A stretch of 64,000 nucleotides of DNA from an uncultured Pseudomonadales bacterium (GTDB lineage: Bacteria; Patescibacteriota; Microgenomatia; UBA1400; MFAQ01), in the NCBI GenBank assembly GCA_964564895.1, contig CAZMCB010000001.1, forward strand, positions 19,689-83,688, written 5' to 3'. The position numbers and the translations under genes were made by a program. This document shows, piece after piece, positions 2,750 to 20,394 of this stretch. The notes under the pieces were generated by a model. The model was not told the DNA's origin. It worked only from the letters and a program-made list of their open reading frames with translations, and ran no database searches. How positions within the stretch are numbered: the stretch's first letter is position 1; each line of letters starts with the position of its first letter.

Positions 2750-4285
2750 TTAAATAATTTCATAGAGATAAAAATTATCTTGATTGAGAATAAGCTTTAC
2801 ACCTTTAAGTTTTTCTAGAATCAAACCCTCATTACAGTTCATTGAGTGGTTTGTTATGATGTATTGCGTTTTGTCTGTAATGTTATTTTTAATAGTGTTT
2901 TTTATAATAGCTAATAGTATTTGAGCTTCTGTAACATCTTTTTCAGTAAGTAGCTTTGCATAAGCGACATCTGCAGATTCGTTGTATTCTCCTACCTTTA
3001 CTACTCCACACGCTATGAAATAATCTCCTGCCATAATGGAATAGTCATCGAGATAGTAACTTGCCCAGTAGTAGTTACTGCTCGGAAGTAATAAATAAGA
3101 ACTTTCCTTGGGGGCAAGTTTTTCAATATTTTGATAAAAAGAAACCTCTGTTTCATTTATTAAGACAGGTCCGCGGGATAGAATTCTGGTGTCGGCTGAG
3201 AGATATATAAATAGTAAGGGTAAAACAGAAAGTACTTTATAAATATTTCCTTTTTTAAATAACGATAAAAAGACTGCATAAAAAATAAATGTTGAAAGAG
3301 TGACAAGACCCACAAATCTCTCTGGCAAGAAATTCAAACCGATGAGTGGTTGAAAAGTAAATAATGCACCAATAATGAAAAGCGCCAGGGGTAGAGCAAA
3401 TTTTCTTCGATTTGTTTTAATCTCTTTTCTTTTGATGAATAAGACGATTACAGAAAATAAAAGAAAATATACTAACCAATATTTACCCGTTTCTTCTAAA
3501 AATGTTTTTTGAATTCTTTCGGCCTCATCCCCAAGAATCATAGGTTGAGAGGGAAAGATAATTTTAATTTTTTCAGCAATTGGGCTGATGATGGAAGAGG
3601 ATGCCATAGCTGTAAACGGAGGCAAAGATACTGGAAAGTAACGAATTATTTGGCAAAATCCAATTGCACAGGAAATAATTAGGACAATAACGGCCTTCTT
3701 GAGTGTTTTGATTTTGTTTTGATCAAGAATTATTTTGAGTAGAAAATAGAGGCCAACAACCAATCCATACGCCACTGAAGAAAAGTTGTGAACATAGAAT
3801 ATCAATCCCAAAACAAGTCCTAATAATATATTTTTAAAGCGAAATTCTTTACTAGTTTCTATAGCAAAAAAAGCAAACAGAATGATAAAGCTGGTGTAAT
3901 TGGCAAATAACATATATGCATAGCCAAGAAGATATGGAGAAATAATCACTGCTGACGCAAGAGCTACTGCAGTAAGGCGTGACTTGGTCAGATTAGTCAT
4001 TAATTTAGTCAGAAGTATGACGATAATCATGGAAATTATGGTAATAGCCGCGCGATATGCCATCATTGGATCTAAATTAAATATTCTAGAAATAAGTGCG
4101 GGGAAGGCTATCACTAGATAGCGATCTAAGAGGGAATAACTGATAACGTTTGGATTACTAAGGGCAAAATCACGAATGGCAGAAAGATAGAATGGTGTGT
4201 CAAAACCAGGAAGAAAAGGTTTAATCCAGAAAAAATTTATTGAAAGAAGAAATGAAAGAATTATTGGCAGCAAACTAATCACCAT
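2750..4285 (-). CDS. Polytopic membrane protein with a C-terminal extracytoplasmic domain, GT-C-like
   Basis: The ORF-track start at 4408 would overlap the epimerase by 134 nt. The internal Met (MVISLLPIILSF...) at 4285 gives an 11-nt overlap and starts at the first TM helix. Multiple TM helices are followed by a ~170-aa hydrophilic C-terminus. Confidence 0.45.
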   Translation of the reverse strand: MVISLLPIILSFLLSINFFWIKPFLPGFDTPFYLSAIRDFALSNPNVISYSLLDRYLVIAFPALISRIFNLDPMMAYRAAITIISMIIVILLTKLMTNLTKSRLTAVALASAVIISPYLLGYAYMLFANYTSFIILFAFFAIETSKEFRFKNILLGLVLGLIFYVHNFSSVAYGLVVGLYFLLKIILDQNKIKTLKKAVIVLIISCAIGFCQIIRYFPVSLPPFTAMASSSIISPIAEKIKIIFPSQPMILGDEAERIQKTFLEETGKYWLVYFLLFSVIVLFIKRKEIKTNRRKFALPLALFIIGALFTFQPLIGLNFLPERFVGLVTLSTFIFYAVFLSLFKKGNIYKVLSVLPLLFIYLSADTRILSRGPVLINETEVSFYQNIEKLAPKESSYLLLPSSNYYWASYYLDDYSIMAGDYFIACGVVKVGEYNESADVAYAKLLTEKDVTEAQILLAIIKNTIKNNITDKTQYIITNHSMNCNEGLILEKLKGVKLILNQDNFYLYEII

Positions 4286-5255
4286 CTTTACATAATAAAT
4301 TATTCGCCCAGCTTCGATTTTCAAGATACCATTCAACACTATTTTTAATTCCTTCTTCAAAGGATATTGATGGTTCCCATCCGAATAATTCCTTAGCCTT
4401 ATTTCCATTTGCTAAAGTATCTTTCATGTCAGCTTTTGAAAAAGCTTGGTATTCCACATTAGCTTTTTTACCTGAATATTTTTCTATTAAAGTAATTAAA
4501 TCTTTAAGTGAATACGACGCCAAGCCTCCACCCAAGTTGGTTATTTCGTAACCGACAGGTTTTAATGCCGAAATGGTGCCTCTAGCAATATCGTCAACAT
4601 AGGTAAAATCACGGGTTTGTGTCCCGTCGCCATTTACAGTTATCGGTTTGCCTTCAACAATATTATTAATGAATTTGAAAATAACCATATCTGGTCTTCC
4701 TGCCGGACCATAAACAGTGAAATAACGAACAATACTTATATCTAATCCATATAAATAATGATATGTATAAGCCATTACTTCAGCAGATTTTTTTGAAGCT
4801 GCGTATGGTGAAATTGGAGTATTTACGGGTAATGTCTCTAGAAAAGGCATCTCCTGCCCAGCGTATAAGGATGAAGTAGAAGCAAGAACCATTTTTTTGA
4901 CATCATATTTATTCATTAAATCCAATAGGTTTAGGGTTCCGATTGCATTTGTCCTCATATAGACAAAGGGGTCCTTCATGCTATATCTCACTCCTGCTCT
5001 GGCTGCCAAATTAATTACTCCATCAATTTTATTGTTTTTGAATATATTTTCTAAATCTTCGATATTTTCTATATCAATTTTTTCGAACTTAAAATTATTG
5101 TCTTTTTTAAGCAAATTCAAACGATGCTCCTTCAATTTAACATCGTAATAATCATTCATATTATCAACACCCAAGACTGTATCTCCACGCTTTAATAGCT
5201 GCTCACACACCTTGTGTCCAATAAATCCCGAGGAACCCGTGACTAATATATTCAT
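4275..5255 (-). CDS. NAD-dependent nucleotide-sugar epimerase/dehydratase (UDP-glucuronate / UDP-GlcNAc 4-epimerase family)
   Basis: MNILVTGSSGFIGHKVCEQLLKRGDTVLGVDN is an extended-SDR Rossmann motif. The YAASKKSAE YxxxK catalytic motif is present. 326 aa. Confidence 0.8.
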   Translation of the reverse strand: MNILVTGSSGFIGHKVCEQLLKRGDTVLGVDNMNDYYDVKLKEHRLNLLKKDNNFKFEKIDIENIEDLENIFKNNKIDGVINLAARAGVRYSMKDPFVYMRTNAIGTLNLLDLMNKYDVKKMVLASTSSLYAGQEMPFLETLPVNTPISPYAASKKSAEVMAYTYHYLYGLDISIVRYFTVYGPAGRPDMVIFKFINNIVEGKPITVNGDGTQTRDFTYVDDIARGTISALKPVGYEITNLGGGLASYSLKDLITLIEKYSGKKANVEYQAFSKADMKDTLANGNKAKELFGWEPSISFEEGIKNSVEWYLENRSWANNLLCKDGD

Positions 5256-5426
5256 TATTTTTATTATACCTATACTTAAATAGTATACTTATAAAGCTTG
5301 TCGAGTTTGTTTTATTGATAATGCATATATATGTATAAAATTAAATATTGTGTTTTTATGATTTCAATTAAAAAGTGGACCATATCATTTCTTGAATCTA
5401 TTTACACGAAGGTTTTTAAGCGCGAA
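5256..5426. promoter_or_regulatory. Divergent promoter region between the epimerase operon (-) and the flippase operon (+)
   Basis: A 170-nt, very AT-rich spacer with several TATAAT/TATACT-like hexamers between divergently transcribed genes. Exact -35/-10 boxes are not assignable. Confidence 0.3.
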
Positions 5427-6662
5427 ATGAGTGATAATGTGCGTACGTTTCTTAAAAATTTGTCTTTGTCAATTTTTGGAGGTGGAATCGCATCGGCTGC
5501 AATGATGGTAATAAATATTGGGGCAGGTAGAATGTTGGGTCCAAGTGGGTATGGAGAATATGGACTAGTTTTAGCAATCAGTCAAATTTTTATGGTTCCA
5601 ATAGTGCTTGGGCTTGATGTATCAGGAGTAAGGGCAATATCTTCCGTTGAATCAAGAAGGGAGAAATCATTAAATATTTCCAGTGTATTTCACTTTGTTG
5701 GTTTATCGTCTATAGTATTTATTTTTTTATATTTAGTGTTCAATAATTTTGTTTCAAAAATACTCAACATTGACAGAACAATTTTATTAATGTCGGCCAT
5801 ATATGCAATTGTTACTTCTTTTAAGGTAATTTCAGATAGTTTTGTACGAGCACTTTTACTATTTAAAACTCAGTTGTTTGCACGACTTGTGGAAATGATT
5901 ACAATCATCTTTCTTTTTTCGTTGTTCTTTTTAGTAATCGAAAAACAAAATTATACGAATTATTTAATTTCAATATTGGGAGGTTCAATTGTGTTTTGTA
6001 TTATATTGCTAGCTAAGTACTTACCATACCTAACTAAGTTTGATTTTAGTTACTTAAAAAAACAACTCTCATATAGTTCGGTTTTGTTGTTTGGTTCAAT
6101 CTTAGGAGCAATATATAATGTTCTAGAAAAAATGGTAATAGCTAGGTACTTGAGTGTTTTTGACTTAGGGATATATCTTGCATATTTCACCGCATCCTTA
6201 GGAATGATTGCACAATTAACACAAATGTTTGTTAATGTATTTTTTCCTTCAATAACAAAATCATCTAACAGATCTGTTTATTTAAAAGTTGAGAAAATTT
6301 TTCTTTCTCTATTTTTTCCGACATTATTATTAATATCTTGTCTGATATTTATAATAATCAATTTTTTTGGCAAAACATATGGAATGAATTATTATTATGT
6401 ATTCGGTTTTGGATTATTGGCTACAATGCAAATGCTGTTAGGAATAAATTACTATATTTTTGCTTCTTCCTCAAAAAAACTATATTTTACATATGTTAAA
6501 TATGTTGGTGCAATAAATTTTCTCCAGTTACTTGCATACGGAGCTATGATTTATTTTGATATCGTTTCAATTGATTTAATAATAGTAGTGTCAATGGTAA
6601 ATTCAATCGCAAACATTACATTTCAAAGGAAACTGATAATGAATAAGGATATTATGATATAA
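5427..6662 (+). CDS. Wzx-like oligosaccharide flippase (MOP superfamily, polysaccharide biosynthesis protein)
   Basis: The N-terminus NLSLSIFGGGIASAAMMVINIGAGRMLGPSGYGEYGLV matches the Wzx N-terminal pattern (...ARxLGPxxxGxY). About 12 TM helices. Start taken at M33 (5427); the ORF track extends to 5331. Confidence 0.65.
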   Translation: MSDNVRTFLKNLSLSIFGGGIASAAMMVINIGAGRMLGPSGYGEYGLVLAISQIFMVPIVLGLDVSGVRAISSVESRREKSLNISSVFHFVGLSSIVFIFLYLVFNNFVSKILNIDRTILLMSAIYAIVTSFKVISDSFVRALLLFKTQLFARLVEMITIIFLFSLFFLVIEKQNYTNYLISILGGSIVFCIILLAKYLPYLTKFDFSYLKKQLSYSSVLLFGSILGAIYNVLEKMVIARYLSVFDLGIYLAYFTASLGMIAQLTQMFVNVFFPSITKSSNRSVYLKVEKIFLSLFFPTLLLISCLIFIIINFFGKTYGMNYYYVFGFGLLATMQMLLGINYYIFASSSKKLYFTYVKYVGAINFLQLLAYGAMIYFDIVSIDLIIVVSMVNSIANITFQRKLIMNKDIMI

Positions 6663-6755
6663 AATCGACTATATTGTTGCATGGCAATCTTATATGGTGC
6701 GTGTTAACATTAAAATAAATTATCACCAAGTATCATCTTATTTACCTGAAAAGAT

Positions 6756-7940
6756 ATGAATGTAAAAAAATGTAGAATGTGTGGATCCCCAAAACTTTGG
6801 GAATGGCTTGATCTTGGGCACCATCCACATTCAGACCAGTTTAAAACATCGAGAGACGTAGAAGAAAAGACATACCCTCTTCGAGTTTGTTTATGTGAGA
6901 AATGTGGATTAAATCAACTAACCTATGTAGTTGACAAAGAAGAACTTTATGCAAAAGACTACCTCTATGAATCTTCAATTACGAAGACTGGTAATTCTCA
7001 CTGGGAAGAATTCGCCGATACAGTCCTAAAGAATGTAAAAATGCCTAAAGATGGTCTCGTTGTAGATATAGGTTCAAATGATGGTACTTTATTAATGAAG
7101 TTCCAAGCAAGAGGGTTTGATGTTCTTGGAATAGATCCCACTCCAGAGGTTACCGAAATTGCTAGGCAAAGAGGCATCCCAACAATCACAGATTTTTTCT
7201 GTAAACGAGCGATAAAGGGAAAGAGAGCAGAGTTGGTCGTTGGCACAAATGTATTTGCCCACATAGACGATTTGGATGATTTTATGAATAACATTTCTGA
7301 ATTACTTACCGAAAACGGAACCTTTGTTTTCGAATCTCCGTATTTTGCCGACTTTCTAGAAGGACTCGAGTATGACACGGTGTACCATCAGCATCTTTCC
7401 TATCTTTCGCTTAAGCCAATTATAAATTTTTTAGAAAAGTTTCAGATGGAGGTTTACGACATTAATCGCGTTGGTATTCATGGGGGTGGCTTCCGTGTAT
7501 ACATTTCTCGAAAGGGCAAATTTGAGATTAAACCAATTGTTAAGGAGATGATAGAATCGGAGTGTTGGGATAAAAAAGATCTAATTAAATTTGCAGTTGA
7601 TACAAAGAATAATCGTGATGAGCTTTTTGAATTAATATATTCGTTATACAAACAACGAAAAACAATAGCTGTGGTATCTACTCCAGCAAAAGGTATGACT
7701 CTACTTAATTACAGTGGAATTGGAAAATATATATCATTTGCAACCGACAAATCAAAATTAAAACAAGGAAGATATACTCCAGGAACTTTTATTAAAATAT
7801 ATTCTGATGATGAGCTATTAAGTAAACAGCCAGATTATGCATTACTCTTGGCTTGGAACTTTGGTAAGGAAATTATTAAAAATAATAGTGGTTATAAGGG
7901 AAAATGGATTATCCCGATACCAAAAATACAAATAATATGA
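6756..7940 (+). CDS. NDP-hexose C-methyltransferase (TylCIII/TcaB9-like; Methyltransf_13/14 architecture)
   Basis: N-terminal Cys4 zinc ribbon (CRMCGS...CEKCG), a central SAM motif VVDIGSNDGTLL, and a C-terminal ~120-aa domain. This three-part layout is typical of sugar C-3/C-methyltransferases. Confidence 0.65.
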   Translation: MNVKKCRMCGSPKLWEWLDLGHHPHSDQFKTSRDVEEKTYPLRVCLCEKCGLNQLTYVVDKEELYAKDYLYESSITKTGNSHWEEFADTVLKNVKMPKDGLVVDIGSNDGTLLMKFQARGFDVLGIDPTPEVTEIARQRGIPTITDFFCKRAIKGKRAELVVGTNVFAHIDDLDDFMNNISELLTENGTFVFESPYFADFLEGLEYDTVYHQHLSYLSLKPIINFLEKFQMEVYDINRVGIHGGGFRVYISRKGKFEIKPIVKEMIESECWDKKDLIKFAVDTKNNRDELFELIYSLYKQRKTIAVVSTPAKGMTLLNYSGIGKYISFATDKSKLKQGRYTPGTFIKIYSDDELLSKQPDYALLLAWNFGKEIIKNNSGYKGKWIIPIPKIQII

Positions 7941-8281
7941 TACATAAAACCCATAAGGATGAAAGAGGTATTATAAAAGATTTAATAATTGGAAAAGAAG
8001 GTGCGGCTACATATATTACGTTTGAAAAAGGAGCTATTCGAGGGAATCATCTTCATAAAAAAACCGTTCAGCATGATTTCATTCTTTCCGGAAGACTTAT
8101 ATGTTATTCAGGAGATAAAAAAATTATTCTTAAATCAGGAGAAATTATTACCCACTTAGCCAATGTTCCTCATGCTTATAAAGCTATTGAAAAATCAGAA
8201 ATGATCTCTTTAGTAAGTGGTCCAAGAAAAGGTGAAGATTATTCTCTAGATATGTACAAATTAATAAAACCTTTGGTATGA
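7937..8281 (+). CDS. Cupin-fold NDP-4-keto-6-deoxyhexose 3,4-ketoisomerase (FdtA/QdtA/WxcM-like)
   Basis: About 114 aa with RGNHLHKK, which matches the RGxHAH(K) active-site motif of FdtA-type isomerases. ATGA start/stop overlaps link it to the upstream and downstream genes. Confidence 0.55.
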   Translation: MIHKTHKDERGIIKDLIIGKEGAATYITFEKGAIRGNHLHKKTVQHDFILSGRLICYSGDKKIILKSGEIITHLANVPHAYKAIEKSEMISLVSGPRKGEDYSLDMYKLIKPLV

Positions 8282-9279
8282 GATGTTCAAGGCCGTCTGT
8301 TACAGAACTAGAAAAAAAGTTCGTCAACGAAGCTCTTGATTTAGGTGATATTGGCGTAGGAGAATTTATCTCTAAATTTGAGACATCCTGGGCGACATGG
8401 AACAAAAAAAAATATGGGGTTTCTTGTAATTCCGGAACAAATGCTATTTACCTTGCTTTGAAGGCTCTTAAAATTGGTCCGGGGGACGAAGTGATTGTTC
8501 CAGAGTTTACTATGATAGCTACTGCATGGGCTGTGTCATATACTGGAGCAAAACCGGTTTTTGTTGATTGTGGTGATGATCTCAATATGCTCGATACTTT
8601 TACGGTTACTGAAAAGACAAAAGCAATTATTACGGTTCCAATATATGGGAGAAAAGTTAAGGAAAGTGTGTATGCAAAAGCAAGAAATAATAATCTGTAT
8701 ATCATTGAAGACATGGCTGAAGCTCACGGAATAAATCCTAGAGGAGATATTGCCTGTTATTCATTCTATGGAAATAAAATTATTACCACAGGAGAAGGCG
8801 GTATGTGTATTACCGATAATGAGATGTGGGCATCAGAGATGCGGCTTTATGCAAATATGTACTTTGACAAAGAACGAAAAATGCTTCATCCCAAAATCGG
8901 TCATAATTTTCGTATGACAAACTTACAGGCAGCTTTCGGTTTGGCACAAGTGATGAGGATCGAAGAAATTCTAGCAAAAAGACGCCAAATTGAAAAGTGG
9001 TATGACACCTATATTCCAAGTAAAATGAAGATGCCTAAACGTGATGTTTTGTGGATGTATGATATTGATTGCGGTGATAAACAAGAGGAATATAAAAGTA
9101 AACTTGGAGAGATTGAGTCAAGATACTTTTTCAAACCAATGAGTATGCAACCAATGTACCTCGGAAAATATGATAATTTAAACGCATATAGGTGGTCTAA
9201 AAGAGGGCTGTATCTTCCAACATTTACCGATATGACCGAAGATGAAGTAAAAAATGTGTGCGAAAAATTATATAATTAG
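8278..9279 (+). CDS. DegT/DnrJ/EryC1/StrS-family PLP-dependent sugar aminotransferase
   Basis: SGTNAIYLALKALKIGPGDEVIVPEFTMIATA matches the AAT-I fold. YGNKIITTGEGGM contains the PLP lysine. Confidence 0.8.
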   Translation: MRCSRPSVTELEKKFVNEALDLGDIGVGEFISKFETSWATWNKKKYGVSCNSGTNAIYLALKALKIGPGDEVIVPEFTMIATAWAVSYTGAKPVFVDCGDDLNMLDTFTVTEKTKAIITVPIYGRKVKESVYAKARNNNLYIIEDMAEAHGINPRGDIACYSFYGNKIITTGEGGMCITDNEMWASEMRLYANMYFDKERKMLHPKIGHNFRMTNLQAAFGLAQVMRIEEILAKRRQIEKWYDTYIPSKMKMPKRDVLWMYDIDCGDKQEEYKSKLGEIESRYFFKPMSMQPMYLGKYDNLNAYRWSKRGLYLPTFTDMTEDEVKNVCEKLYN

Positions 9280-9315
9280 CAATTTAATATTTGCTTTGAA
9301 TCGCATAAAAATCAA

Positions 9316-10365
9316 ATGAAAGTAAGAATTGTGTGCTACGAAGATGTTGACACTTGGATTTTGGGTAAATTTGCAAAAAAACTTAATGAAGAGTTAACTA
9401 AACTTGGTGTAGATTCTGATATCGCAAAAGTACCAAACGGAAATGCCGATATCAACCATCACATCATTTATTTTTCTTACGATTGTCATAAAAATTCAAT
9501 TGATACTCTCATGATTACGCACATCGACTCACCTTTTAAACTTAAAATATTAAAAAAACAACTCGAATCTGCCAAATTGGGAGTGTGTATGTCACTCGAC
9601 ACAATGCAAAAACTGATTGATTCTGGAATACCAAAAGAAAAATTATATTATATAAACCCTGCGCACGATGAGGTTATCAATCCTAGAAAAATTGTGATTG
9701 GTATCTTGAGCAAGGTTCATGAAGATGGAAGAAAACAAGAAAATATATTATTAAGATTATGCAAAAAAATAAATCCTGACGATTTTAGTTTTAAAGTAAT
9801 GGGCTCTGGTTGGAATGAGATTGTAAATAAACTTAAGAGGATGGGGTTTAAGGTTGATTATTTCGAGAACTTTAACTATGACAGATACGTTGAGCTAGTT
9901 CCCACTCTCGATTATTTCTTTTACTTTAGTTTTGACGAAGGGTCGATGGCGTTCATGGATGCATTGTCTGCTGGAGTTCCCACCATCGTTACACCACAAG
10001 GATACCATTTAGATGCTATTGGAGGAATAAGTTATCCCGTCAGAACATTCGATGACATAGTTAAAACGTTCAATGATATTTCCAATAAACGCAAAGTTTT
10101 GGTAGACTCTGTTTCAAAATGGACATGGAAAAATTATGCAAAAGAACATATTCTTTTATGGGATCAATTATTATCAAACAAAAATATTGATATTCTATTG
10201 AAAAATAAGCTATTAAAAAGAAAATCTAATCCCCACAAACCAGAAAAACTTTTTAGTTATCTAAATATATTTAACAATATGTATACGATTAAAACAGCCA
10301 TTTTATATCTAACACCAAATTTTTTAAAAAATATTTGTAAGAATATATTTTCTAAAATATCATGA
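9316..10365 (+). CDS. Divergent GT-B-fold (GT4-like) glycosyltransferase
   Basis: FSFDEGSMAFMDALSAGVPTIVTP aligns with the GT4 EX7E motif ([21 protein letters not shown]), with D in place of the second E. Otherwise no recognisable motif. Confidence 0.4.
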   Translation: MKVRIVCYEDVDTWILGKFAKKLNEELTKLGVDSDIAKVPNGNADINHHIIYFSYDCHKNSIDTLMITHIDSPFKLKILKKQLESAKLGVCMSLDTMQKLIDSGIPKEKLYYINPAHDEVINPRKIVIGILSKVHEDGRKQENILLRLCKKINPDDFSFKVMGSGWNEIVNKLKRMGFKVDYFENFNYDRYVELVPTLDYFFYFSFDEGSMAFMDALSAGVPTIVTPQGYHLDAIGGISYPVRTFDDIVKTFNDISNKRKVLVDSVSKWTWKNYAKEHILLWDQLLSNKNIDILLKNKLLKRKSNPHKPEKLFSYLNIFNNMYTIKTAILYLTPNFLKNICKNIFSKIS

Positions 10366-11132
10366 ATATTTATAAGGACTATGCAGAGTATTACGACCTT
10401 CTATATGCGGATAAAGATTATTTAAAAGAAGCATGTTTTGTCAGCAAAGTATTGTCCAAATACTCAAAGGGGAAAGGGACAATTTTGGAACTTGGTTGCG
10501 GTACTGGGATCCACGCGACCGAGTTAGTTAAAAGAGGATTTCTTGTGGACGGAATTGATTCTAGTAAGGTCATGTTGGAGAGTGCAAAAAACAGGTTCGA
10601 TTACCTACCAACTGATTTGAAAAAAAACCTTTCTTTTTCTTATGGGGATATTCGAAAATATCGAAACAAAAAAAAATATGACTCAGTTGTTTCTCTATTT
10701 CATGTGACTAGCTACATGACTACTAACAAACATTTGAACGCAATGTTTGATACGGCAAATTTTCATCTCAATAAAAACGGAATATTTATGTTCGATTGTT
10801 GGTATGGTCCTGCAGTTCTCACCATTAGACCGAAAAAGAAAAATAAAATAATTGAAAATGAAAAAATTAAAATTGTCAGAACTGCTATACCAGAAATGCG
10901 TCCCAATGAAAACATTGTGGATGTAAATTATGATATTAATTTTATTGATAAACATACTAAAACAATTAATAAGATAAAAGAAATTCATTCTGTAAGATAC
11001 TTCTTTATGCCAGAAATTATCGAAGTATTAAAATTTAACAATTTCGATCTCATAGACGCCTGTGAACTAATTTCTAAAAAAAAACCAGGCTTTGAAACCT
11101 GGGGGGTCTGTTTTATAGCAAAAAAATCATGA
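10362..11132 (+). CDS. Class I SAM-dependent methyltransferase
   Basis: ILELGCGTGIHATELVKRGFLVDGIDSS contains the SAM motif I and an acidic post-I residue. Confidence 0.7.
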   Translation: MNIYKDYAEYYDLLYADKDYLKEACFVSKVLSKYSKGKGTILELGCGTGIHATELVKRGFLVDGIDSSKVMLESAKNRFDYLPTDLKKNLSFSYGDIRKYRNKKKYDSVVSLFHVTSYMTTNKHLNAMFDTANFHLNKNGIFMFDCWYGPAVLTIRPKKKNKIIENEKIKIVRTAIPEMRPNENIVDVNYDINFIDKHTKTINKIKEIHSVRYFFMPEIIEVLKFNNFDLIDACELISKKKPGFETWGVCFIAKKS

Positions 11133-11875
11133 TTAATGTAAAAAAATTTCTAGGTATTATTTCCGAAATTATAAATAAATTTCACGGTGAATCAAATAAA
11201 AAACCCCTCCATTATTTCAAAAACCCAATAAATAGATATATTAAGAAACCCATAACAGTATTTACGAGCATTACAGGAGACATGGATAAACTAATTGACG
11301 ACCAGGTGACTGAAGGAGCAAATTTTATTGCTTTTACTGACCAAAAAAGTAAAACATGGAAGACGTTTAAGCCTTACGATAAATTTAAAGACTATCGAAG
11401 GAATTCTAGAATCTATAAAATTATTCCTCATTTGTTTTTCGATACTGAATATTCGATTTGGATTGATGGAAATGTAAGACTAAAAGTACCAGCCCAAGAA
11501 GTGATTAATAAATTTCTACAACAAAAAGATATTGCTGTCTGGAAGCATCTTAATAGAGATTGTATATACGACGAAGCAGAGGCTTGTTTAATACAAGGAA
11601 AAGATACTCCAGAGGCACTTAATGAACAAATAAGTGAGTATAAAAAACGGGGTATCCCTGCACATGGTGGTTTGTACGCGGCGACAATAATTATTAGGAG
11701 ACACACAAAGAGGATTGGTGAATTAAATGAGAGGTGGTGGGCAGAATATACTAGGTATTCTCAAAGAGATCAAATAAGTTTTCCCGTTGCATTTCCTGCC
11801 GAAGAAATATGTTGTATTCCAGATGGAACAATGTGGAATAATAAATATTTTGAAAGAGTTAATCATAAAAAGTAG
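11129..11875 (+). CDS. DUF616 (TOD1/MUCI70-like) putative glycosyltransferase
   Basis: YKIIPHLFFDTEYSIWIDGNV and SQRDQISF match conserved blocks of the DUF616 family that I recall from plant TOD1 and bacterial capsule-locus proteins. Confidence 0.5.
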   Translation: MINVKKFLGIISEIINKFHGESNKKPLHYFKNPINRYIKKPITVFTSITGDMDKLIDDQVTEGANFIAFTDQKSKTWKTFKPYDKFKDYRRNSRIYKIIPHLFFDTEYSIWIDGNVRLKVPAQEVINKFLQQKDIAVWKHLNRDCIYDEAEACLIQGKDTPEALNEQISEYKKRGIPAHGGLYAATIIIRRHTKRIGELNERWWAEYTRYSQRDQISFPVAFPAEEICCIPDGTMWNNKYFERVNHKK

Positions 11876-11889
11876 TTATAATCCAATAA

Positions 11890-12462
11890 ATGAATAAGAA
11901 AAAACGCAAATATATAAATCTTGATATTGGCTGTGGTCAAAATAAAAAACTCGGGTTCAAAGGCTTAGATAAAATGAAAATGATTAATGTTGATATTGTT
12001 TGCGACCTTGAAAAAGAAAAAATACCACTTGAAGACTGTTCAGTTCAAGAAATTTATTCAATGCATTTTTTAGAACATACAAATAATTTGATCCAAGTCA
12101 TGGATGAAATATGGAGAGTCTCAACTAATGGAGCAAGGATTGTTTTAGCAGTACCATATTATAATTCTATTGGAGCATTTCGAGATCCCACACACAAAAG
12201 GTTTTTTACATACAATACTTTTGATTATTTTACAGATACAGTCGTGTTCCCTTCTTATTACACAAAAGCAAAATTTATCATAACAAAAAAGAGAATATTG
12301 TTTTATCCAGCAAATTCAAACATTAGAGGTATCATTCCAAAAATATTCAAATTACCTTTTCAGCTATTTGTAAATATATTTCCCAATCTTTACGAAAATT
12401 CTTTTTTGAAAATATTCCCTGCTAATGATTTATATGTTGAATTGAAAACAATTAAATTATGA
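11890..12462 (+). CDS. Small class I SAM-dependent methyltransferase
   Basis: LDIGCGQNKKLGF..D.. is the motif I. It is about 190 aa and lies in a sugar-modification context. Confidence 0.6.
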   Translation: MNKKKRKYINLDIGCGQNKKLGFKGLDKMKMINVDIVCDLEKEKIPLEDCSVQEIYSMHFLEHTNNLIQVMDEIWRVSTNGARIVLAVPYYNSIGAFRDPTHKRFFTYNTFDYFTDTVVFPSYYTKAKFIITKKRILFYPANSNIRGIIPKIFKLPFQLFVNIFPNLYENSFLKIFPANDLYVELKTIKL

Positions 12463-13277
12463 ACGAAGATTTCGTTAGCATATTAATTGTTTCATATAAT
12501 GCAGAGAGATATATACACAAGACAATTGAGAGTTGTCTAAATCAAACATATAAAAATATTGAGGTATTACTCCTTGATAATAACTCAAAAGATAAAACTG
12601 TAGAAATTTCAAGAAAAATTCAAAGAGAAGACAACAGATTAAAAATCTTCGTCGGTAAAACAAATTTAGGACCATACAATGGATTAAACTTTCTTTTGGA
12701 TAAGGCACAAGGAAAATACATAGCCATTCAAGACCACGACGATATCTGGTATCCAGAAAAGATTATGAAACAGATAAATTTTTTAAAAAAAAATAATAAG
12801 TATATTGCTTGTGGAACTAATACCTATTATTATTACGAGTCAAAAAAAATAATGGTTTTAAATAGCTACTCACTGGTTACAAATTTTGTTGACCATACGT
12901 CACTTGTGTTTAGAAACAAGATGTTTAGATATAACACAAATTTTTTATTAGCTGACGAACATTTTGAAAAAAAGATATTGGCCTACGCGGGGAAAATTGG
13001 TTGCATTCAAACAACTCTTACTATTCACAGGATTAAGGAAGATGGAACAAATTTGTCTTCTTATAGATTTAGGATCAACTTAAAAAATATTATGGAATAT
13101 TTCTTTATTAATGGCTTTAATATATCTAGTATAAATAATTTGTTATTTATGATGTTTATAAAAATTGTCCCAGAAAGCATAATTTGGAAGATGAAAAATG
13201 TGATTGCCTCAACAAAAGGAACAAGTATTAGTTTGTCAGATTTTGTATCAAAAAATCCAAAAATTGATTTTATCTAA
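12459..13277 (+). CDS. GT2 family glycosyltransferase
   Basis: ILIVSYNAERYIHKTIESCLNQTY...LLLDNNSKD is a GT-A N-terminal signature. It carries a DxD (DHDD). Confidence 0.75.
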   Translation: MNEDFVSILIVSYNAERYIHKTIESCLNQTYKNIEVLLLDNNSKDKTVEISRKIQREDNRLKIFVGKTNLGPYNGLNFLLDKAQGKYIAIQDHDDIWYPEKIMKQINFLKKNNKYIACGTNTYYYYESKKIMVLNSYSLVTNFVDHTSLVFRNKMFRYNTNFLLADEHFEKKILAYAGKIGCIQTTLTIHRIKEDGTNLSSYRFRINLKNIMEYFFINGFNISSINNLLFMMFIKIVPESIIWKMKNVIASTKGTSISLSDFVSKNPKIDFI

Positions 13278-13279
13278 GC

Positions 13280-14377
13280 TTAAAGTTCATCAATTTCCTT
13301 TGATAGAATTCTAGCAATATTATCCAGATCAAAATTAATATTTGCTTTCCGTTTAGCATTGTTTTCGACAAAACTTCTAAGTTTATGATTGGTAATTAGT
13401 CTAACAATATTATGAGAAAGTGCGTGTGAATTTTTAATCGGAACCAAAAGAGCGCTATTATCATTGAGAATATATATATTTTCCGGAATATTTGTGGCAA
13501 TTATCGGAAGCCCACAAGCCATTGCTTCCAAAATGGAATTACTCATTCCCTCAAATAATGTAGGAAGGACAAAAATATTTGATATCTTTAGTAGATAGGG
13601 AACATCATCTCTTTTTCCTAGAAAAATTATGTTATTTTTCGAATCGTAAAATTTTATTTGATTCTTAAGATTTTCTTTTTCTGAGCCATCCCCAACTAAT
13701 AATAGTTTTATATTCTTGTACTTTTTATAAACCTGCTCAAATGCTTCAAGAAGATATTTGTGACCTTTATTTATATGAAAATTTGCAACACAAATTATGA
13801 CTTTATCAGACTGTTTGATACCTAGCTTTGTTCTTAATTTGTAGTCTTTTGGAATACTATTATAATAATCAACATCGATACCGTTTGGAATAACGATAAT
13901 TTTGTTTTTCGATACTCCAATTTTGTGAACATAGAAATCTTTGACTGCTTCCGAGTTTGCAATATACTTATATACTAAACTCTTAGTAATTGTTTCAAAA
14001 AGCCTTGCTTGCCAATAGTTTTTGTGATTGTATGTAGTTCTTAAAAATGGTATTACTTTGCAATTAATAAATGATTGTACATACAGCCTCCCAATTAGAT
14101 CAGCGTGAAATAAATAAGTAATTATCAAGCTTGGGCTTATTTCTTTTAACTTTAGTTTTAATCGACGATATGAGAATAAATCAACCAGACTCTTCTGATT
14201 GATATTAATAACTCTGATACCTTTTTTTTCAAATTTATCAGCCAGACCCCCTCTTCTGTTTAGAGTGACTATTATGTGATTGAATTTCTTCATAAGAGGC
14301 AGAGTTCGAAGAAGCATATTTTCACAGCCACCACTGTCTAGTGATTGAATTAAGTGGACAATTGTTTTTTTAGACAT
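13280..14377 (-). CDS. GT4 family glycosyltransferase (GT-B fold)
   Basis: EGMSNSILEAMACGLPIIATN is an EX7E motif. Start taken at the internal Met (MSKKTIVHL) at 14377, which avoids a 47-nt overlap with the upstream methyltransferase. Confidence 0.8.
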   Translation of the reverse strand: MSKKTIVHLIQSLDSGGCENMLLRTLPLMKKFNHIIVTLNRRGGLADKFEKKGIRVININQKSLVDLFSYRRLKLKLKEISPSLIITYLFHADLIGRLYVQSFINCKVIPFLRTTYNHKNYWQARLFETITKSLVYKYIANSEAVKDFYVHKIGVSKNKIIVIPNGIDVDYYNSIPKDYKLRTKLGIKQSDKVIICVANFHINKGHKYLLEAFEQVYKKYKNIKLLLVGDGSEKENLKNQIKFYDSKNNIIFLGKRDDVPYLLKISNIFVLPTLFEGMSNSILEAMACGLPIIATNIPENIYILNDNSALLVPIKNSHALSHNIVRLITNHKLRSFVENNAKRKANINFDLDNIARILSKEIDEL

Positions 14378-15440
14378 GTGTTCCAATACAAGTAATACCT
14401 GCCTCAGGATGTTCAAATGATTTTATATTATTGAGTTTTGCTTCTTTGAACCATTTTTCTATTTCTTCTGAATAATAGTAATTACTCTTTGGAGTTGCTA
14501 ATACATCAAAGGCATCATTTAGCTTCATGTTGAAAGAAAAATTTTCATAATAGAAAAAGGGCATCTTTTTCAACTTTAGTGACTTACAAAATATGTTCCA
14601 TAAGTGAACTATTGTTGCCGGGATGTAGCAAAGTTTGTATAAGATCGGTTTGGGAATTAATCGACTGATAACTCTAAGTGGCTCATACAAATATATGGCT
14701 CTATTATTGTTTCGACGACTGTAGACCCAGATTAACATTTTTCCATTTTTCTTTAAAACTTTGATGAGTTTTTTGAAACCCTCCTTCGGTTCTGGGATAT
14801 GATGTAATACTCCAATACTGTAGGCAATATCTATCTCGTCTTTAAGTGGTAAAGCATAAATATCCGCTTGGACAATAGCAACATTCACGTATGATTTCGT
14901 CATCTCGTAGGCGACCTCGACACTATCCCCAAGATCAACTCCAAACGCCACCTTGGCCCCTCCTAGGGCCGCCCATTTTGTAAATCTACCAGAACCACAA
15001 CCGATATCCAATGTTACCTTTCCTTTAAAATCGTTTTGTTTAATAAATGGCGATAAAAAGTGGTAGAAATTGTTTTTCTCAAAAGTGTTCTCTTTGTATA
15101 TATTTGTCCACTCGTACGCAAAACTATCGGCAGTTTTCCGCTGATGTTTTTCAAATGAGGATTTTTGTTTTGTATCCTTTACAACACGTTTCCATTCACT
15201 CACAATATTAGGAGGAAGAATGTTTTTGTATTTATTTAAAAATGAATATTTTCTCTGAAGAATGTCGATTTTTTCTTGACCAGTCAGCATTCTAGGAATA
15301 CCTCCAATAACTGGGTACCAAGAACTTTTTCCAAGCAAAACCCCATCAACAACTTCGTCTTCATCTCTATTAAATACTTTAAGTATTAGTTCTTTGTTTT
15401 CTGTTGGATCTGATAGATATTTGAAATACGATAGTTTCAT
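14370..15440 (-). CDS. SAM-dependent methyltransferase with an N-terminal Trm112-like domain
   Basis: An N-terminal YPVIGGIPRML Trm112/DUF343-like segment is followed by LDIGCGSGRFTKWAALGGAKVAFGVD (motif I). Confidence 0.65.
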   Translation of the reverse strand: MKLSYFKYLSDPTENKELILKVFNRDEDEVVDGVLLGKSSWYPVIGGIPRMLTGQEKIDILQRKYSFLNKYKNILPPNIVSEWKRVVKDTKQKSSFEKHQRKTADSFAYEWTNIYKENTFEKNNFYHFLSPFIKQNDFKGKVTLDIGCGSGRFTKWAALGGAKVAFGVDLGDSVEVAYEMTKSYVNVAIVQADIYALPLKDEIDIAYSIGVLHHIPEPKEGFKKLIKVLKKNGKMLIWVYSRRNNNRAIYLYEPLRVISRLIPKPILYKLCYIPATIVHLWNIFCKSLKLKKMPFFYYENFSFNMKLNDAFDVLATPKSNYYYSEEIEKWFKEAKLNNIKSFEHPEAGITCIGTHV

Positions 15441-17329
15441 GAAAAATATTCTCTAAACCATAATTCTAATGTTAGAAGTGCCCAAATTCTGGAAGAATAA
15501 TTGGTGTTTGTATTCTGATGTTCTTTAAGCATCCACTTAATATACTCTTTACTGAACATCCCTCTGGATATTGCTTTGTCTGAAAGCAAAATATCTTCAG
15601 TATATTTTGCAAGGTCGTTTTTGAACCATGTTTCAATTGGAATTCCAAAACCCATCTTTGGTCTAAACATTACCTCATCTGGAACTAATCCTCGGAGAGC
15701 TTCTTTAAGAATATATTTTTTGTTGTTTAATCCTTTTAACTTCAAACCAAACGGAATTTTAGCTGTTAATTCTAGAAACTCATTGTCGAGAAATGGTGAT
15801 CGACCTTCTAGAGAAGCGGCCATACTGGCAATATCCACTTTTACCATCAAATCGTCTGGTAAATAACTATTAAAATCAGCGAAAAGCGTTTGGTCTAACT
15901 TATTATCTGTTCCTGATTCATTAAACTTATCGGCAATAATTTTGTAGCTATTATTCTTTCCTATTTTTTCTTTGAATTCATCTGTATAAAGTTTTTCCTT
16001 TGAGTCGTTGTCAAAATAACAGATATAGTTCATGTATCTTTCTCGATAATCTTGATTTATGGATTTTGAAAATCGATTGACTCTATCAAAAAATGTTGAC
16101 TTAATTGATCTATTAACGTAATCTGTTATGGGAATAGCCATCTTGTTGATTAATTTAAATTTGTCATACCAGAGAGCAAATTTTTGAACACTGTATCTTC
16201 CATAGCCAGCAAAATTTTCATCTCCCCCATCTCCGTTTAGCGCCACTGTAACATGCTCCTTTGTAAGTTTGCTTAGATAATATGTGGCTAATCCACTGCT
16301 ATCAGCATAAGGCTCCTCGTATTGCCGTACTAACCAAGGAAGAATTTCTATCGTTTCTGGTTTGACTACAAATTCGGTATGATCGGTATTAAATTTGTCG
16401 GCAACAATCCTGGCATATTTTGATTCATCAAATTTCTTTTCTTGAAATGAGATTGTAAAAGTTTTAACTTTATTAACTGAATTCTTACTCATCAAAGCGA
16501 CGACAGCACTTGAATCAATACCGCCTGATAAAAATGCACCAACAGGAACATCTGAAGCTAACATGCGAATCTTTACAGATTCATCCAATTTATCCAAAAC
16601 CCTCTTCTTCCAATCAACCTCACTTAAATCTAGCTTTTCTGAGTAATCTAGTTTCCAGTATCTTTTGTTGATTAGTTTTTTTGTTTTTAGATCCAAATGT
16701 ATGAAATGAGCCGGTTCAAGTTTTTTAATATCTTTAAACCCTGTAAGAGGTGAAGGTACATATTGAAGAGTTAGGTAATGATGTATGGCAAGATAATCGG
16801 GTTCCTTTTTATACTCTTTTTGTGTGAGAATCGCCTTTAACTCCGAAGCAAACATAAACACATTGTCATCAATGTAATATTTGAATGGTTTCTTCCCCAC
16901 TCTATCTCTAGCACAAAATACTGTCTTTTCTTTTTCGTCATAGATGGCAAAAGAAAACATCCCTCTTAAATGATCGAGGCACTTAAAACCATATTTATCA
17001 TATAGTGCCATGATTACTTCTGTATCCGAGTGAGAGTCAAACTTATATCCTATCTTTAACAGTTTAGATTTTTCGTCTAAGTAATTATAAATTTCACCAT
17101 TGAATACTATCCAGTATCTTTTTAGATAATTCATTGGCTGGTGGCCTAATGGAGAAAGATCGATGATGGATAGCCTCCGATGACCTAGCCCTACTCTTCT
17201 ATCAGAAGAGATGTAAACACCATCGTCGTCAGGACCGCGATGTTTAATCGACTCTGACATCTGCTCAACTTGAGAAGCAGAGACTTCTTTGTCTTTTGCA
17301 AAATAGATTTTCCCAACAATTCCACACAT
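15437..17329 (-). CDS. Asparagine synthase (glutamine-hydrolysing) family amidotransferase, AsnB/WbpS-like
   Basis: MCGIVG is the N-terminal Ntn nucleophile. SGGIDSS is the PP-loop ATP pyrophosphatase motif. 630 aa. Confidence 0.9.
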   Translation of the reverse strand: MCGIVGKIYFAKDKEVSASQVEQMSESIKHRGPDDDGVYISSDRRVGLGHRRLSIIDLSPLGHQPMNYLKRYWIVFNGEIYNYLDEKSKLLKIGYKFDSHSDTEVIMALYDKYGFKCLDHLRGMFSFAIYDEKEKTVFCARDRVGKKPFKYYIDDNVFMFASELKAILTQKEYKKEPDYLAIHHYLTLQYVPSPLTGFKDIKKLEPAHFIHLDLKTKKLINKRYWKLDYSEKLDLSEVDWKKRVLDKLDESVKIRMLASDVPVGAFLSGGIDSSAVVALMSKNSVNKVKTFTISFQEKKFDESKYARIVADKFNTDHTEFVVKPETIEILPWLVRQYEEPYADSSGLATYYLSKLTKEHVTVALNGDGGDENFAGYGRYSVQKFALWYDKFKLINKMAIPITDYVNRSIKSTFFDRVNRFSKSINQDYRERYMNYICYFDNDSKEKLYTDEFKEKIGKNNSYKIIADKFNESGTDNKLDQTLFADFNSYLPDDLMVKVDIASMAASLEGRSPFLDNEFLELTAKIPFGLKLKGLNNKKYILKEALRGLVPDEVMFRPKMGFGIPIETWFKNDLAKYTEDILLSDKAISRGMFSKEYIKWMLKEHQNTNTNYSSRIWALLTLELWFREYFS

Positions 17330-19246: not shown

Positions 19247-20394
19247 TTATTTAGTAGAGCAATATATTTATCAATCGAGGTATCCCAGCTAAACTTGTAT
19301 TTTACTTCTTCCCTTGCTTGATTTCCCAATTTGGTTCTCAATTCTTTATTATGTGCTAACTGTGCAATTTTATCAGCGAGAATACTTGAATTTCTGGCAG
19401 GAATTAGTATTCCGGAACTATCGCTGATGATTTCTTTTGTTCCACCAACATTGGTAGCAATAATTGCCTTACTGCAGATAGCTGCTTCGATAACGCTTGT
19501 GGGCAGACCCTCAGTGTAGCTAGGATTCACGACAATATCACTTGTTTTTAGAATACCAATTAGTCCTTCTTTGTTTTTTTGACCAAAGAAAATTACTTTG
19601 TTTGCTATCTTTAAATCTTTTGCTTTTTCTTCTAAATTTATTTTTTGAGGACCTGAACCAACTATGAATAATACCCAATTATTAATTTTTAATTTTGATA
19701 CTGCTGACAACAAATCAGGCACTCCCTTTCCGTCTATTAATCTGCCTGTGTAGACAATTTTTACTAGATCTTTGAATTTATTTAAAATTCCTTTGTCTGG
19801 TGCAATATTTTCTATTTCATCAATCTCGATGCCCCTGAAAATTACATGGTACTTCCTATTGGGATATATTTTTTTGCAAAACTCAGCTGAAGCCTTGGAG
19901 TTGGCAACTACAATGTTGGCTTTCTTGAGAATTAATCGACCACAAGTATTGTCAAATAGTTTGGCGATAAATGAGTGAAGCTTGTTTGAAAGTTGAACGA
20001 AGTCTGAACCATGCTCTATATGCATCCATTTTATTTTTCTTTTTTGAGAGTAAGTAAGTGCCATCAGGGAAGTAAAAAAGAATCTGGTTCGAGAGATAAC
20101 TAAATCAAAATTTTTTTTATATAACTCATTTATCAAATTTCGATAATCTTTTTGCCAGAACTTCGGCAAAAACCAATTGGGTATTAATTCGAAGGCTGGG
20201 AATCTAACAATGTTAACGTTTTTATAGCGAAGATCTCTTTCAGGAGTATCTATAGGCAATCTGGGAGTAAAAACCGTAATCTCATATCCCCTTTTAGATA
20301 TGAACTTATTAAACTCGTCTGCATGACTTTCTAAACCACCGACATGAGGAAAATAGTAGGGACAGAATACTAAAATTTTCCCAAGAATTTTCAT
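19243..20394 (-). CDS. GT4 family glycosyltransferase
   Basis: EGLPTSVIEAAICSKAIIATNVGG is an EX7E motif. The N-terminus MKILGKILVFCPYYFPHVGGLE is typical GT4. Confidence 0.8.
   Translation of the reverse strand: MKILGKILVFCPYYFPHVGGLESHADEFNKFISKRGYEITVFTPRLPIDTPERDLRYKNVNIVRFPAFELIPNWFLPKFWQKDYRNLINELYKKNFDLVISRTRFFFTSLMALTYSQKRKIKWMHIEHGSDFVQLSNKLHSFIAKLFDNTCGRLILKKANIVVANSKASAEFCKKIYPNRKYHVIFRGIEIDEIENIAPDKGILNKFKDLVKIVYTGRLIDGKGVPDLLSAVSKLKINNWVLFIVGSGPQKINLEEKAKDLKIANKVIFFGQKNKEGLIGILKTSDIVVNPSYTEGLPTSVIEAAICSKAIIATNVGGTKEIISDSSGILIPARNSSILADKIAQLAHNKELRTKLGNQAREEVKYKFSWDTSIDKYIALLNK

Follow-up and report, generated by a model that had tools for sequence, protein, structure and literature searches.

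A coupled C-methyltransferase, cupin and aminotransferase in a large surface-glycan locus: a possible route to a GDP-activated C-methyl-branched amino sugar

Which sugar is built when a C-methyltransferase, a small cupin and an aminotransferase are encoded by three overlapping genes within a surface-glycan locus? We addressed this question for positions 6756–9279 of a 64,000-nt stretch of contig CAZMCB010000001.1 (assembly GCA_964564895.1, from an uncultured bacterium). The whole stretch is referred to here as the window, and all coordinates are positions within it. Our answer, to which we assign a probability of about 0.5, is that the cassette makes a C-methyl-branched 4-amino-4,6-dideoxyhexose, activated with guanosine diphosphate (GDP), for a surface glycan. 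The most likely product is GDP-4-(methyl)amino-4,6-dideoxy-3-C-methylhexose, which has the skeleton of sibirosamine and kansosamine. An earlier note on this DNA had predicted a C-methyl-branched amino deoxyhexose, and this part of the prediction stands, the methyltransferase and the aminotransferase lying in one coupled operon. The 3-amino-3,6-dideoxy form that it also put forward is not supported, because the cupin falls outside the FdtA family and C-3 would be blocked. The cassette consists of the following genes:

6756–7940, + strand: nucleoside diphosphate (NDP)-hexose C-methyltransferase of the TylC3/TcaB9/KijD1/MtmC family
7937–8281, + strand: small single-domain cupin with an HxH...Q...H metal-type motif, the proposed epimerase partner of the C-methyltransferase
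8278–9279, + strand: pyridoxal phosphate (PLP)-dependent sugar aminotransferase of the DegT family, closest to GDP-perosamine synthase

The three open reading frames (ORFs) encode 394, 114 and 333 amino acids, respectively. Both of the ATGA overlaps claimed earlier were read directly: at 7937–7940 (AATAATATGATAC) and at 8278–8281 (GGTATGAGATG) the start codon of the downstream gene overlaps the stop codon of the gene before it. A caveat applies to the first junction, where an alternative cupin start at 7904 gives the longest ORF and is used in the public gene call (P0121, 125 amino acids), resulting in an overlap of 37 nt. We took 7937 as the start because cupin orthologues at 72–78% identity are 114 amino acids long and begin at the equivalent position. 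Further 4-nt overlaps are found by coordinates at 10362, 11129 and 12459, and because they recur along the chain, the region 6756–13277 looks like one tightly packed operon.

The first gene product had been described as a TylCIII/TcaB9-type sugar C-methyltransferase, and its domains bear this out. It matches the Pfam families PF08421 (Zn-binding, 1.8e-18, above the cut-off), PF13489 (class-I domain binding S-adenosylmethionine (SAM), 3.9e-15) and PF08484 (C-terminal, 2.6e-35), and contains a CxxC...CxxC arrangement formed by C6, C9, C47 and C50 as well as the SAM motif DIGSNDG. Among proteins of known structure in the PDB, full-length alignments were obtained with MtmC (1.7e-70), KijD1 (3e-60) and TcaB9 (about 1e-57). 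Its best solved relatives are sugar C-methyltransferases, not methyltransferases of other substrates, and every one of them methylates C-3 of a 4-keto sugar. Searches at E≤1e-10 gave over 5,800 homologues, many of them about 60% identical; in a plasmid collection, homologues of the C-methyltransferase reached about 36% identity at most and no homologue of the cupin was found. Residues invariant across 25 relatives are Y210-H211-Q212-H213, H169, C9, C47 and C50. We take the sugar pocket of TcaB9 to be formed by Tyr76, His181, Tyr222, Glu224 and His225, with KijD1 offset by +2 in the alignment. In this numbering, H169, Y210 and H213 are the equivalents of His181, Tyr222 and His225 of TcaB9 and KijD1 and are kept, and a Tyr is retained in the Y69/Y71 region, corresponding to Tyr76. 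By analogy with the solved enzymes, the methyl group would be placed on C-3 of an NDP-4-keto-6-deoxyhexose. C-3 would then be quaternary, and therefore no 3-keto intermediate could form later.

The cupin had been labelled FdtA-like in the earlier note. The RGNHLHKK string named with that label is present, and the label itself was dropped. Cupin_2 is the only Pfam family matched (2e-8); the FdtA family PF05523 was not matched at E≤0.01, and none of the NCBIfam models matched the cupin. A profile search against solved structures returned oxalate decarboxylase (5e-15), KdgF (1e-7), CapF (4e-5), an RmlC-like protein (8e-4), a WxcM-like protein (1e-3) and QdtA (0.02), so that CapF is the best nucleotide-sugar cupin, ahead of the WxcM-like protein and QdtA. 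When the N-terminal cupin sub-profile was used, the best five alignments were to oxalate decarboxylases. Pfam analysis of 67 members of the cupin family found PF14667 in all 67 (best 6e-11), weak FdtA matches in 39 (best 3e-6) and the RmlC family in 12. The structure of the cupin was modelled by AlphaFold2 on the alignment of the 67 homologues, and the model has a pLDDT (per-residue confidence) of 92.6. Foldseek placed CapF at ranks 1–4 for this model, and CapF came first in both fold searches performed, with no FdtA or QdtA chain within the top 50–60 matches of either search. FdtA was thus rejected as the identity of the cupin on Pfam, on the PDB profile search and on the fold searches.

The alignment of the 67 sequences also bears upon the putative active site. 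Invariant residues are D8, R10, G11, I13, D15, R35, H38, H40, Q45, G52, H79, R97 and D105. H38-x-H40 falls on the HxH with which oxalate decarboxylase binds Mn, and Q45 occupies the position of its Glu ligand; H38, H40, Q45 and H79 are all in canonical metal-site positions. The His pair expected by the earlier note is thus conserved throughout, though it is not specific to FdtA. RGNHLHKK, judged from this alignment, is a general cupin metal motif (HxH...Q...H) and not an FdtA signature, and the cupin is probably metal-dependent. The cupin of CapF epimerises a UDP-4-keto-6-deoxy sugar in a Zn-dependent manner; K285, G286 and H288 line its pocket and H290 binds Zn (PMC5393024). The site K285-G286-x-H288-x-H290 of CapF compares with R35-G36-N37-H38-L39-H40 of the window cupin. 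A CapF-like identity is the best lead that the modelled fold offers; it is a lead and not proof because the margin of CapF over other small cupins in the fold search is modest.

The arrangement of these genes was compared among related loci. Taking one genome per species gave 27 loci, to which a 90%-identical metagenome locus (L004) was added for a total of 28. The 27 loci are mostly from Saccharibacteria, Paceibacterota/Parcubacteria, Peribacteria/Peregrinibacteria and Nanoarchaeota, with single loci from Halobacteriales, Desulfobacula and Pirellulaceae. The nearest named cassette, 77% identical, is from a Bdellovibrionales metagenome-assembled genome (L001). Gene content across the 28 loci was as follows, Gmd being GDP-mannose 4,6-dehydratase:

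Cupin directly after the C-methyltransferase (gap of 0–114 nt): 25 of 28 loci
Aminotransferase directly after the cupin: 12 of 28 loci, with 2 more in which it is nearby
Gmd of at least 40% identity within 10 kb: 13 of 28 loci
Homologue of the putative N-methyltransferase encoded at 10362–11132 in the window: 5 of 28 loci

Because the same order recurs in 25 of the 28 loci, the arrangement of C-methyltransferase and cupin is no chance feature. The 12 loci in which the aminotransferase follows the cupin come from very different phyla, and the gap there is 0–43 nt. The cupin stays with the C-methyltransferase in 11 loci where no aminotransferase was found nearby. In the two aminotransferase-free Peribacteria loci examined (L013 and L020), a classical short-chain dehydrogenase/reductase (SDR) lies divergently upstream, and L020 also has extended SDRs downstream; an SDR comes straight after the cupin in the Halobacteriales locus. 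A profile search with the cupin recovered 3,020 relatives at E≤1e-3 among 1.84 billion representatives. The best matches include three full-length fusions of C-methyltransferase and cupin (P0271, P0278 and P0296), two partial ones, a cupin-SDR fusion, and cupins fused to other methyltransferases. The pairing, the fusions and the aminotransferase-free loci with SDRs therefore point to methyltransferase plus cupin as the conserved unit, with a variable last step of amination or reduction. Such a pattern is consistent with a common 4-keto intermediate, which undergoes amination in some loci and reduction in others.

Some further features of the related loci were noted. In the cupin relatives P0306, P0325, P0361, P0346 and P0392 the fusion partner is variously a generic class-I methyltransferase, a methyltransferase of the FkbM type, a short-chain dehydrogenase or, once, an HNH nuclease domain; the cupin seems to move between sugar-modifying enzymes as a module. 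A second C-methyltransferase paralogue of 33–39% identity lies on the opposite strand, less than 10 kb from the first, in L011 (346–1551) and L015 (13633–14850), and these organisms may make two different branched sugars. An AbiEi/AbiEii toxin-antitoxin pair is found at 3331–4600 of L001 (equal to 6011–7280 of L002), just upstream of the flippase and the Gmd-C-methyltransferase-cupin-aminotransferase operon.

The third gene of the cassette encodes a DegT-family aminotransferase, as had been claimed (PF01041, 1.2e-73), with the context of the PLP lysine kept (SFYGNKIITTGEGG). Its closest solved relative is the GDP-perosamine synthase Per of Caulobacter (3bn1; 1.9e-61, 211 bits), and the alignment to Per keeps the PLP-lysine stretch FGNKIITTGEGGM; the 3-aminotransferase QdtB scored 4.6e-35 and 125 bits. 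The best NCBIfam match was the LegC family, a GDP-sugar 4-aminotransferase (1.6e-58, below the cut-off). These similarities favour a GDP-sugar as the substrate. Further along the operon, the ORF at 10362–11132 has as its top matches among solved methyltransferases DesVI (3bxo, 1.3e-14), TylM1 (3pfg, 1.1e-10) and CalS10 (1e-7). Homologues lie beside the cassette in L001, L004, L018, L022 and L029, and by its sequence matches the protein is probably the amino-sugar N-methyltransferase of the same pathway.

The nucleotide carrier had been left open between GDP and dTDP, and the evidence now leans clearly to GDP through the Per-like aminotransferase and the linkage to Gmd. Two genes on the opposite strand bear upon this point:

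1–603, − strand (read from 603 to 1): N-terminal 201 codons of Gmd, cut by the window edge and identified by six-frame translation (PDB 1rpn, 9e-51; 1db3, 2e-50)
4275–5255, − strand: SDR epimerase with the motif STSSLY

The Gmd reported at the window start is therefore real, though it lies on the minus strand and is cut by the edge. The fragment is 100% identical to the 341-amino-acid Gmd ORF of the syntenic locus L004. In L001, Gmd (8e-91 to a solved Gmd) lies directly upstream of the C-methyltransferase and overlaps it. In agreement with the earlier note, no nucleotidyltransferase or NDP-glucose 4,6-dehydratase of the RmlA/RmlB type was found among the large ORFs of the window that were scanned. 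The SDR at 4275–5255 was considered as an RmlB-type dehydratase, since its top PDB match carries the name dTDP-glucose 4,6-dehydratase; this was rejected because its active site has the epimerase form STSSLY, not TDE, and its close matches are UDP-glucuronic acid and UDP-glucose 4-epimerases. It had been listed as an NDP-sugar epimerase of the pathway; the STSSLY motif upholds the epimerase identity, and its best matches place it probably outside this pathway. GDP is the likely carrier because the aminotransferase is Per-like, Gmd is present in the window, and Gmd lies directly upstream of the C-methyltransferase in L001.

These identities can be assembled into a proposed route, in which the substrate and the order of the steps are as we infer them. 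Gmd would convert GDP-mannose to GDP-4-keto-6-deoxy-D-mannose. The C-methyltransferase would deprotonate the carbon beside the 4-keto group and transfer the methyl group of SAM onto that carbon, C-3 being assigned by analogy with the solved relatives; TylC3 is reported to invert C-3 (PMC3539893). The cupin may carry out metal-assisted enol(ate)/enediolate chemistry on the 4-keto sugar, setting the neighbouring stereocentre; that it epimerises a centre beside the 4-keto group is a guess by analogy. It would act on C-3 if it precedes methylation or, more plausibly, on C-5 if it follows. A methylated C-3 carries no proton, so a cupin that follows the C-methyltransferase could act only at C-5, and a C-3 epimerase would have to precede methylation. 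Action at C-5 is known for EvaD and TylK in the synthesis of vancosamine and mycarose. The Per-like aminotransferase would then convert the 4-keto group to an amine, which the DesVI-like methyltransferase would N-methylate. The GT-B-like protein encoded at 9316–10365 would install the sugar, and the Wzx flippase would export the product.

Several points weigh against this route. None of the three cassette proteins reaches an NCBIfam equivalog cut-off. The Glu of the Y-x-E-H motif (YDEH in KijD1, YHEH in MtmC) is replaced by the invariant Gln212 in the subfamily of the window C-methyltransferase (YHQH), and in the aligned sequences this change is specific to that subfamily. We considered YHQH as a mark of cupin-dependent methyltransferases and rejected the idea: the change cannot be tied to partnership with a cupin because the cupin-fused enzymes carry YHEH or YLDH. 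C-5 methyltransferases of the NovU type belong to the same family, and C-5 methylation by the window enzyme is possible, as the sequence does not separate it from C-3 methylation. The exact reaction of the cupin is a guess because, chemically, an epimerase acting at C-3 would be superfluous beside a methyltransferase of the same carbon. Amination is assigned to C-4 rather than C-3 conditionally. GDP-perosamine (C-4) and GDP-mycosamine (C-3) synthases are 69–73% identical and have no distinguishing motif (PMC8944477), so the likeness to Per supports GDP and does not fix C-4. Lastly, the window Gmd lies 6 kb from the cassette on the opposite strand, and it may also serve another GDP-deoxyhexose, a second SDR adjoining Gmd in L004.

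The alternative that survives best, which we nonetheless regard as unlikely, divides the cassette between two sugars made from the same Gmd product. The C-methyltransferase and cupin would yield a neutral 3-C-methyl-6-deoxyhexose similar to virenose or evalose and finished by an SDR, and the aminotransferase and N-methyltransferase would yield a plain N-methylated sugar of the perosamine type. Consistent with this division, the C-methyltransferase-cupin pair is found without an aminotransferase in many loci with SDRs nearby, there is the extra SDR beside Gmd in L004, and a 4-ketoreductase activity is also cited in PMC3539893 for MtmC, the closest of the solved relatives. In the window, however, all three genes are coupled through ATGA, no ketoreductase gene is found in the + strand chain 5331–13277, and the close spacing of aminotransferase and cupin is repeated across distant phyla.

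Slightly less likely is a scheme in which the cupin is a GDP-4-keto-6-deoxymannose 3,4-ketoisomerase and amination takes place at C-3, as in mycosamine synthase, with the methyl group elsewhere, for example at C-5 ahead of isomerisation; this would give a 3-amino-3,6-dideoxy hexose with a C-methyl branch. The D-x-R-G and R-G-N-H-x-H-K-K-x-x-Q motifs of the cupin recall FdtA and QdtA, the FdtA, WxcM-like and QdtA scores given above offer some encouragement, and a metal-bound enediolate could in principle isomerise as well as epimerise. The closest solved counterparts of the N-methyltransferase, DesVI and TylM1, have 3-amino sugars as substrates, and C-3 and C-4 aminotransferases of GDP-sugars are inseparable by sequence. 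According to a review of polyene glycosylation, no enzyme that carries out the 3,4-isomerisation of GDP-4-keto-6-deoxymannose has yet been identified (PMC8944477). Against such a role are the failure of the window cupin to match FdtA at E≤0.01, the lead of CapF in both fold searches, and the C-3 specificity of the solved methyltransferases, since C-3 methylation blocks a 3-keto group. Furthermore, the cupin stays with the C-methyltransferase in the 11 loci that lack an aminotransferase, and it is fused to the C-methyltransferase, not to the aminotransferase. Marginally less probable again is the broader proposal that the cupin is the missing ketoisomerase itself and that the C-methyltransferase-cupin unit leads to GDP-linked branched 3-amino sugars that are widespread on the surfaces of bacteria of the candidate phyla radiation (CPR) and nanoarchaea.

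A carrier other than GDP, dTDP or another nucleotide, with RmlA/RmlB encoded elsewhere in the genome, is quite improbable. The characterised relatives of the C-methyltransferase all use dTDP-sugars, and the genome is visible over 64 kb only, but Gmd is in the window and abuts the C-methyltransferase in L001, the aminotransferase is closest to GDP-sugar enzymes, and RmlA/RmlB were not found among the window ORFs scanned, where the only SDR that came into question carries the motif of an epimerase. We consider it most improbable of all that the cupin is a small phosphomannose isomerase whose role is to provide the mannose-6-phosphate needed for GDP-mannose, with no action on a nucleotide sugar: one 78%-identical relative is publicly annotated 'mannose-6-phosphate isomerase-like' and organisms with reduced genomes would need a route to mannose-6-phosphate, but the cupin is fused or adjacent to the C-methyltransferase rather than to Gmd, its invariant N-terminal D-x-R-G is common to the nucleotide-sugar cupins CapF, RmlC-like and QdtA, and its similarity to phosphomannose isomerase chains is marginal (E 0.016–0.025).

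The route to a GDP-activated branched 4-amino sugar, which we prefer, is set among the following genes of the + strand block:

5331–6662, + strand: Wzx-type flippase, first gene of the block (Pfam Polysacc_synt, 5.7e-17; Polysacc_synt_3, 4e-16)
9316–10365, + strand: 349-amino-acid protein, possibly a divergent GT-B glycosyltransferase (weak Glyco_trans_1_4 match, 1.4e-3)
10362–11132, + strand: class-I methyltransferase, DesVI/TylM1-like, with a 4-nt overlap with the preceding gene
11129–11875, + strand: TOD1/MUCI70-like glycosyltransferase-like protein (Pfam PF04765, 2e-23)
11890–12462, + strand: small methyltransferase (Methyltransf_11, 2e-5)
12459–13277, + strand: GT2 glycosyltransferase (Glycos_transf_2, 2e-35)

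The flippase occupies the same position in L001 and L004, and the last part of the chain, 11129–13277, is syntenic in L004. No PDB relative was found for the protein encoded at 9316–10365. Its gene is kept after the aminotransferase in L001 and L004, and a clear GT4 enzyme stands in its place in the loci of Saccharibacteria and Parcubacteria. It probably belongs to the pathway and, to judge from its weak sequence match, may be a divergent glycosyltransferase of the GT-B type that serves the new sugar alone.

The window as a whole is one enormous surface-glycan locus, as the earlier note had recognised. It is packed with glycosyltransferases, including many membrane enzymes of the GT-C type (PMT_2, GT87, YfhO and PTPS_related) together with GT2 and GT4 enzymes, and also encodes two flippases, an acyltransferase and an AsnB-like amidotransferase; no housekeeping genes were found among the window ORFs scanned. 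The GT-C paralogues are 416–759 amino acids long, several of them in tandem (22284–23777, 31967–36868, 36869–38119, 39838–45310 and 55313–61867), with GT2 and GT4 genes interleaved. Such a density of GT-C paralogues in one 64-kb stretch without housekeeping genes is unusual. The G+C content is 28–35% at 4001–14000, the region of the cassette, compared with 36–43% at 26001–64000. The nearest relatives of the cassette come from different phyla, and the part of the locus that holds it may be variable and exchanged horizontally. Downstream of the cassette, between GT4 genes, an AsnB-type glutamine amidotransferase (15437–17329, − strand) lies next to a 356-amino-acid methyltransferase (14370–15440, − strand). 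This pair recurs in L001 and may amidate or decorate a uronic acid in the same glycan. An ORF of 285 amino acids at 20757–21614 (− strand) resembles UDP-glucose/GDP-mannose dehydrogenases and contains the central and a partial NAD domain without the C-terminal UDP-binding domain. The gene may be truncated or may be a pseudogene; the adjacent ORF at 20391–20738 encodes a DUF2304 protein and is not its missing part.

To our knowledge, sugars with C-methyl branches have been described chiefly in antibiotics of actinomycetes and in a few glycans of pathogens. The sugar class itself is not new, C-methyl branches in envelope glycans being rare but known. The suggestion that such a sugar would be unusual in a cell-envelope glycan was overstated, given the precedents of virenose in Coxiella, 3-C-methyl-mannose in Helicobacter pylori and N-acyl-kansosamine in Mycobacterium kansasii, the last being a sugar of the cell envelope. 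What appears to be undescribed is the synthesis of a C-methyl amino sugar on GDP, the near-obligate and sometimes fused partnership of a C-methyltransferase with a CapF-like cupin, and the wide spread of this pair in CPR bacteria and DPANN archaea. We found no description of the pairing in the literature, with the limit that no search was aimed directly at it and coverage was incomplete. If our proposal holds, branched deoxysugars would be commonly displayed on the surfaces of ultra-small microbes that depend on hosts, and the cassette would provide new enzymes for glyco-engineering on GDP-sugars.

Comparison with characterised systems serves to place each of the enzymes. The cupin is most like CapF (Cap5F) of Staphylococcus aureus, its best structural match in two independent searches, and a (K/R)-G-x-H-x-H motif is found in both proteins; some of its relatives are fused to an SDR, as CapF pairs an epimerase with a reductase. 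The two are only 17–19% identical, however, and the CapF cupin is the C-terminal domain of an SDR, whereas the window cupin stands alone at 114 amino acids (with relatives fused to methyltransferases) and is predicted to act on a different nucleotide and sugar. FdtA, QdtA and WxcM are likewise small cupins of nucleotide-sugar pathways with D-x-R-G and R-G-x-H-x-H-K motifs, and the weak FdtA matches seen among the relatives do not extend to the window cupin, which falls below the family model. They are absent from its top folds, its His pair aligns with the ligands of classical metallo-cupins, and they act on dTDP-sugars and pair with 3-aminotransferases.

The C-methyltransferase shares with TylC3, TcaB9, KijD1 and MtmC the three-domain architecture of Zn-ribbon, SAM and C-terminal domains (E of 1e-57 to 1e-70) and the His and Tyr residues of the sugar pocket. 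In contrast, those enzymes use dTDP-sugars, where the window enzyme probably uses a GDP-sugar, and have the Glu that is an invariant Gln in its subfamily. They come from antibiotic clusters; enzymes of the window kind come from surface-glycan loci of uncultivated bacteria and archaea and are paired with, or sometimes fused to, the small cupin. The GDP-perosamine synthases (Per/RfbE; Caulobacter 3bn1 and 3dr4) include the best solved relative of the aminotransferase, which aligns over nearly the full length and shares the Gmd product as its presumed precursor; the window enzyme is about 35 residues shorter, and its presumed substrate bears a C-methyl branch. The N-terminal 150 residues of the DesVI/TylM1-like protein align with those enzymes, including the YDLxY...DY..EA start, at modest scores (1e-14 to 1e-10). 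DesVI and TylM1 are N,N-dimethyltransferases of dTDP-3-amino sugars, and the window enzyme may perform mono- or di-methylation.

With respect to the final sugar, virenose of Coxiella burnetii lipopolysaccharide, 3-C-methyl-D-mannose of the H. pylori O-antigen and D-evalose are C-3-methyl-branched hexoses of surface glycans. A GDP route via Gmd and a TylC3-like enzyme has been proposed for virenose, and the paper mentions no cupin partner (PMC3539893). These sugars are neutral and have no amino group, and they are better counterparts of the aminotransferase-free loci (L013–L027) than of the window. The predicted 4-amino-4,6-dideoxy-3-C-methyl hexose skeleton is instead that of sibirosamine, from sibiromycin, and of N-acyl-kansosamine, from the lipooligosaccharide of M. 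kansasii. The sibirosamine and kansosamine pathways are probably dTDP-based with RmlC-type epimerases, whereas GDP and a CapF-like cupin are predicted for the window. The sibirosamine set reportedly described by Li et al. in 2009, consisting of a 4,6-dehydratase, an epimerase, a C-methyltransferase, a 4-aminotransferase and an N-methyltransferase, is the same set of enzymes as that predicted for the window.

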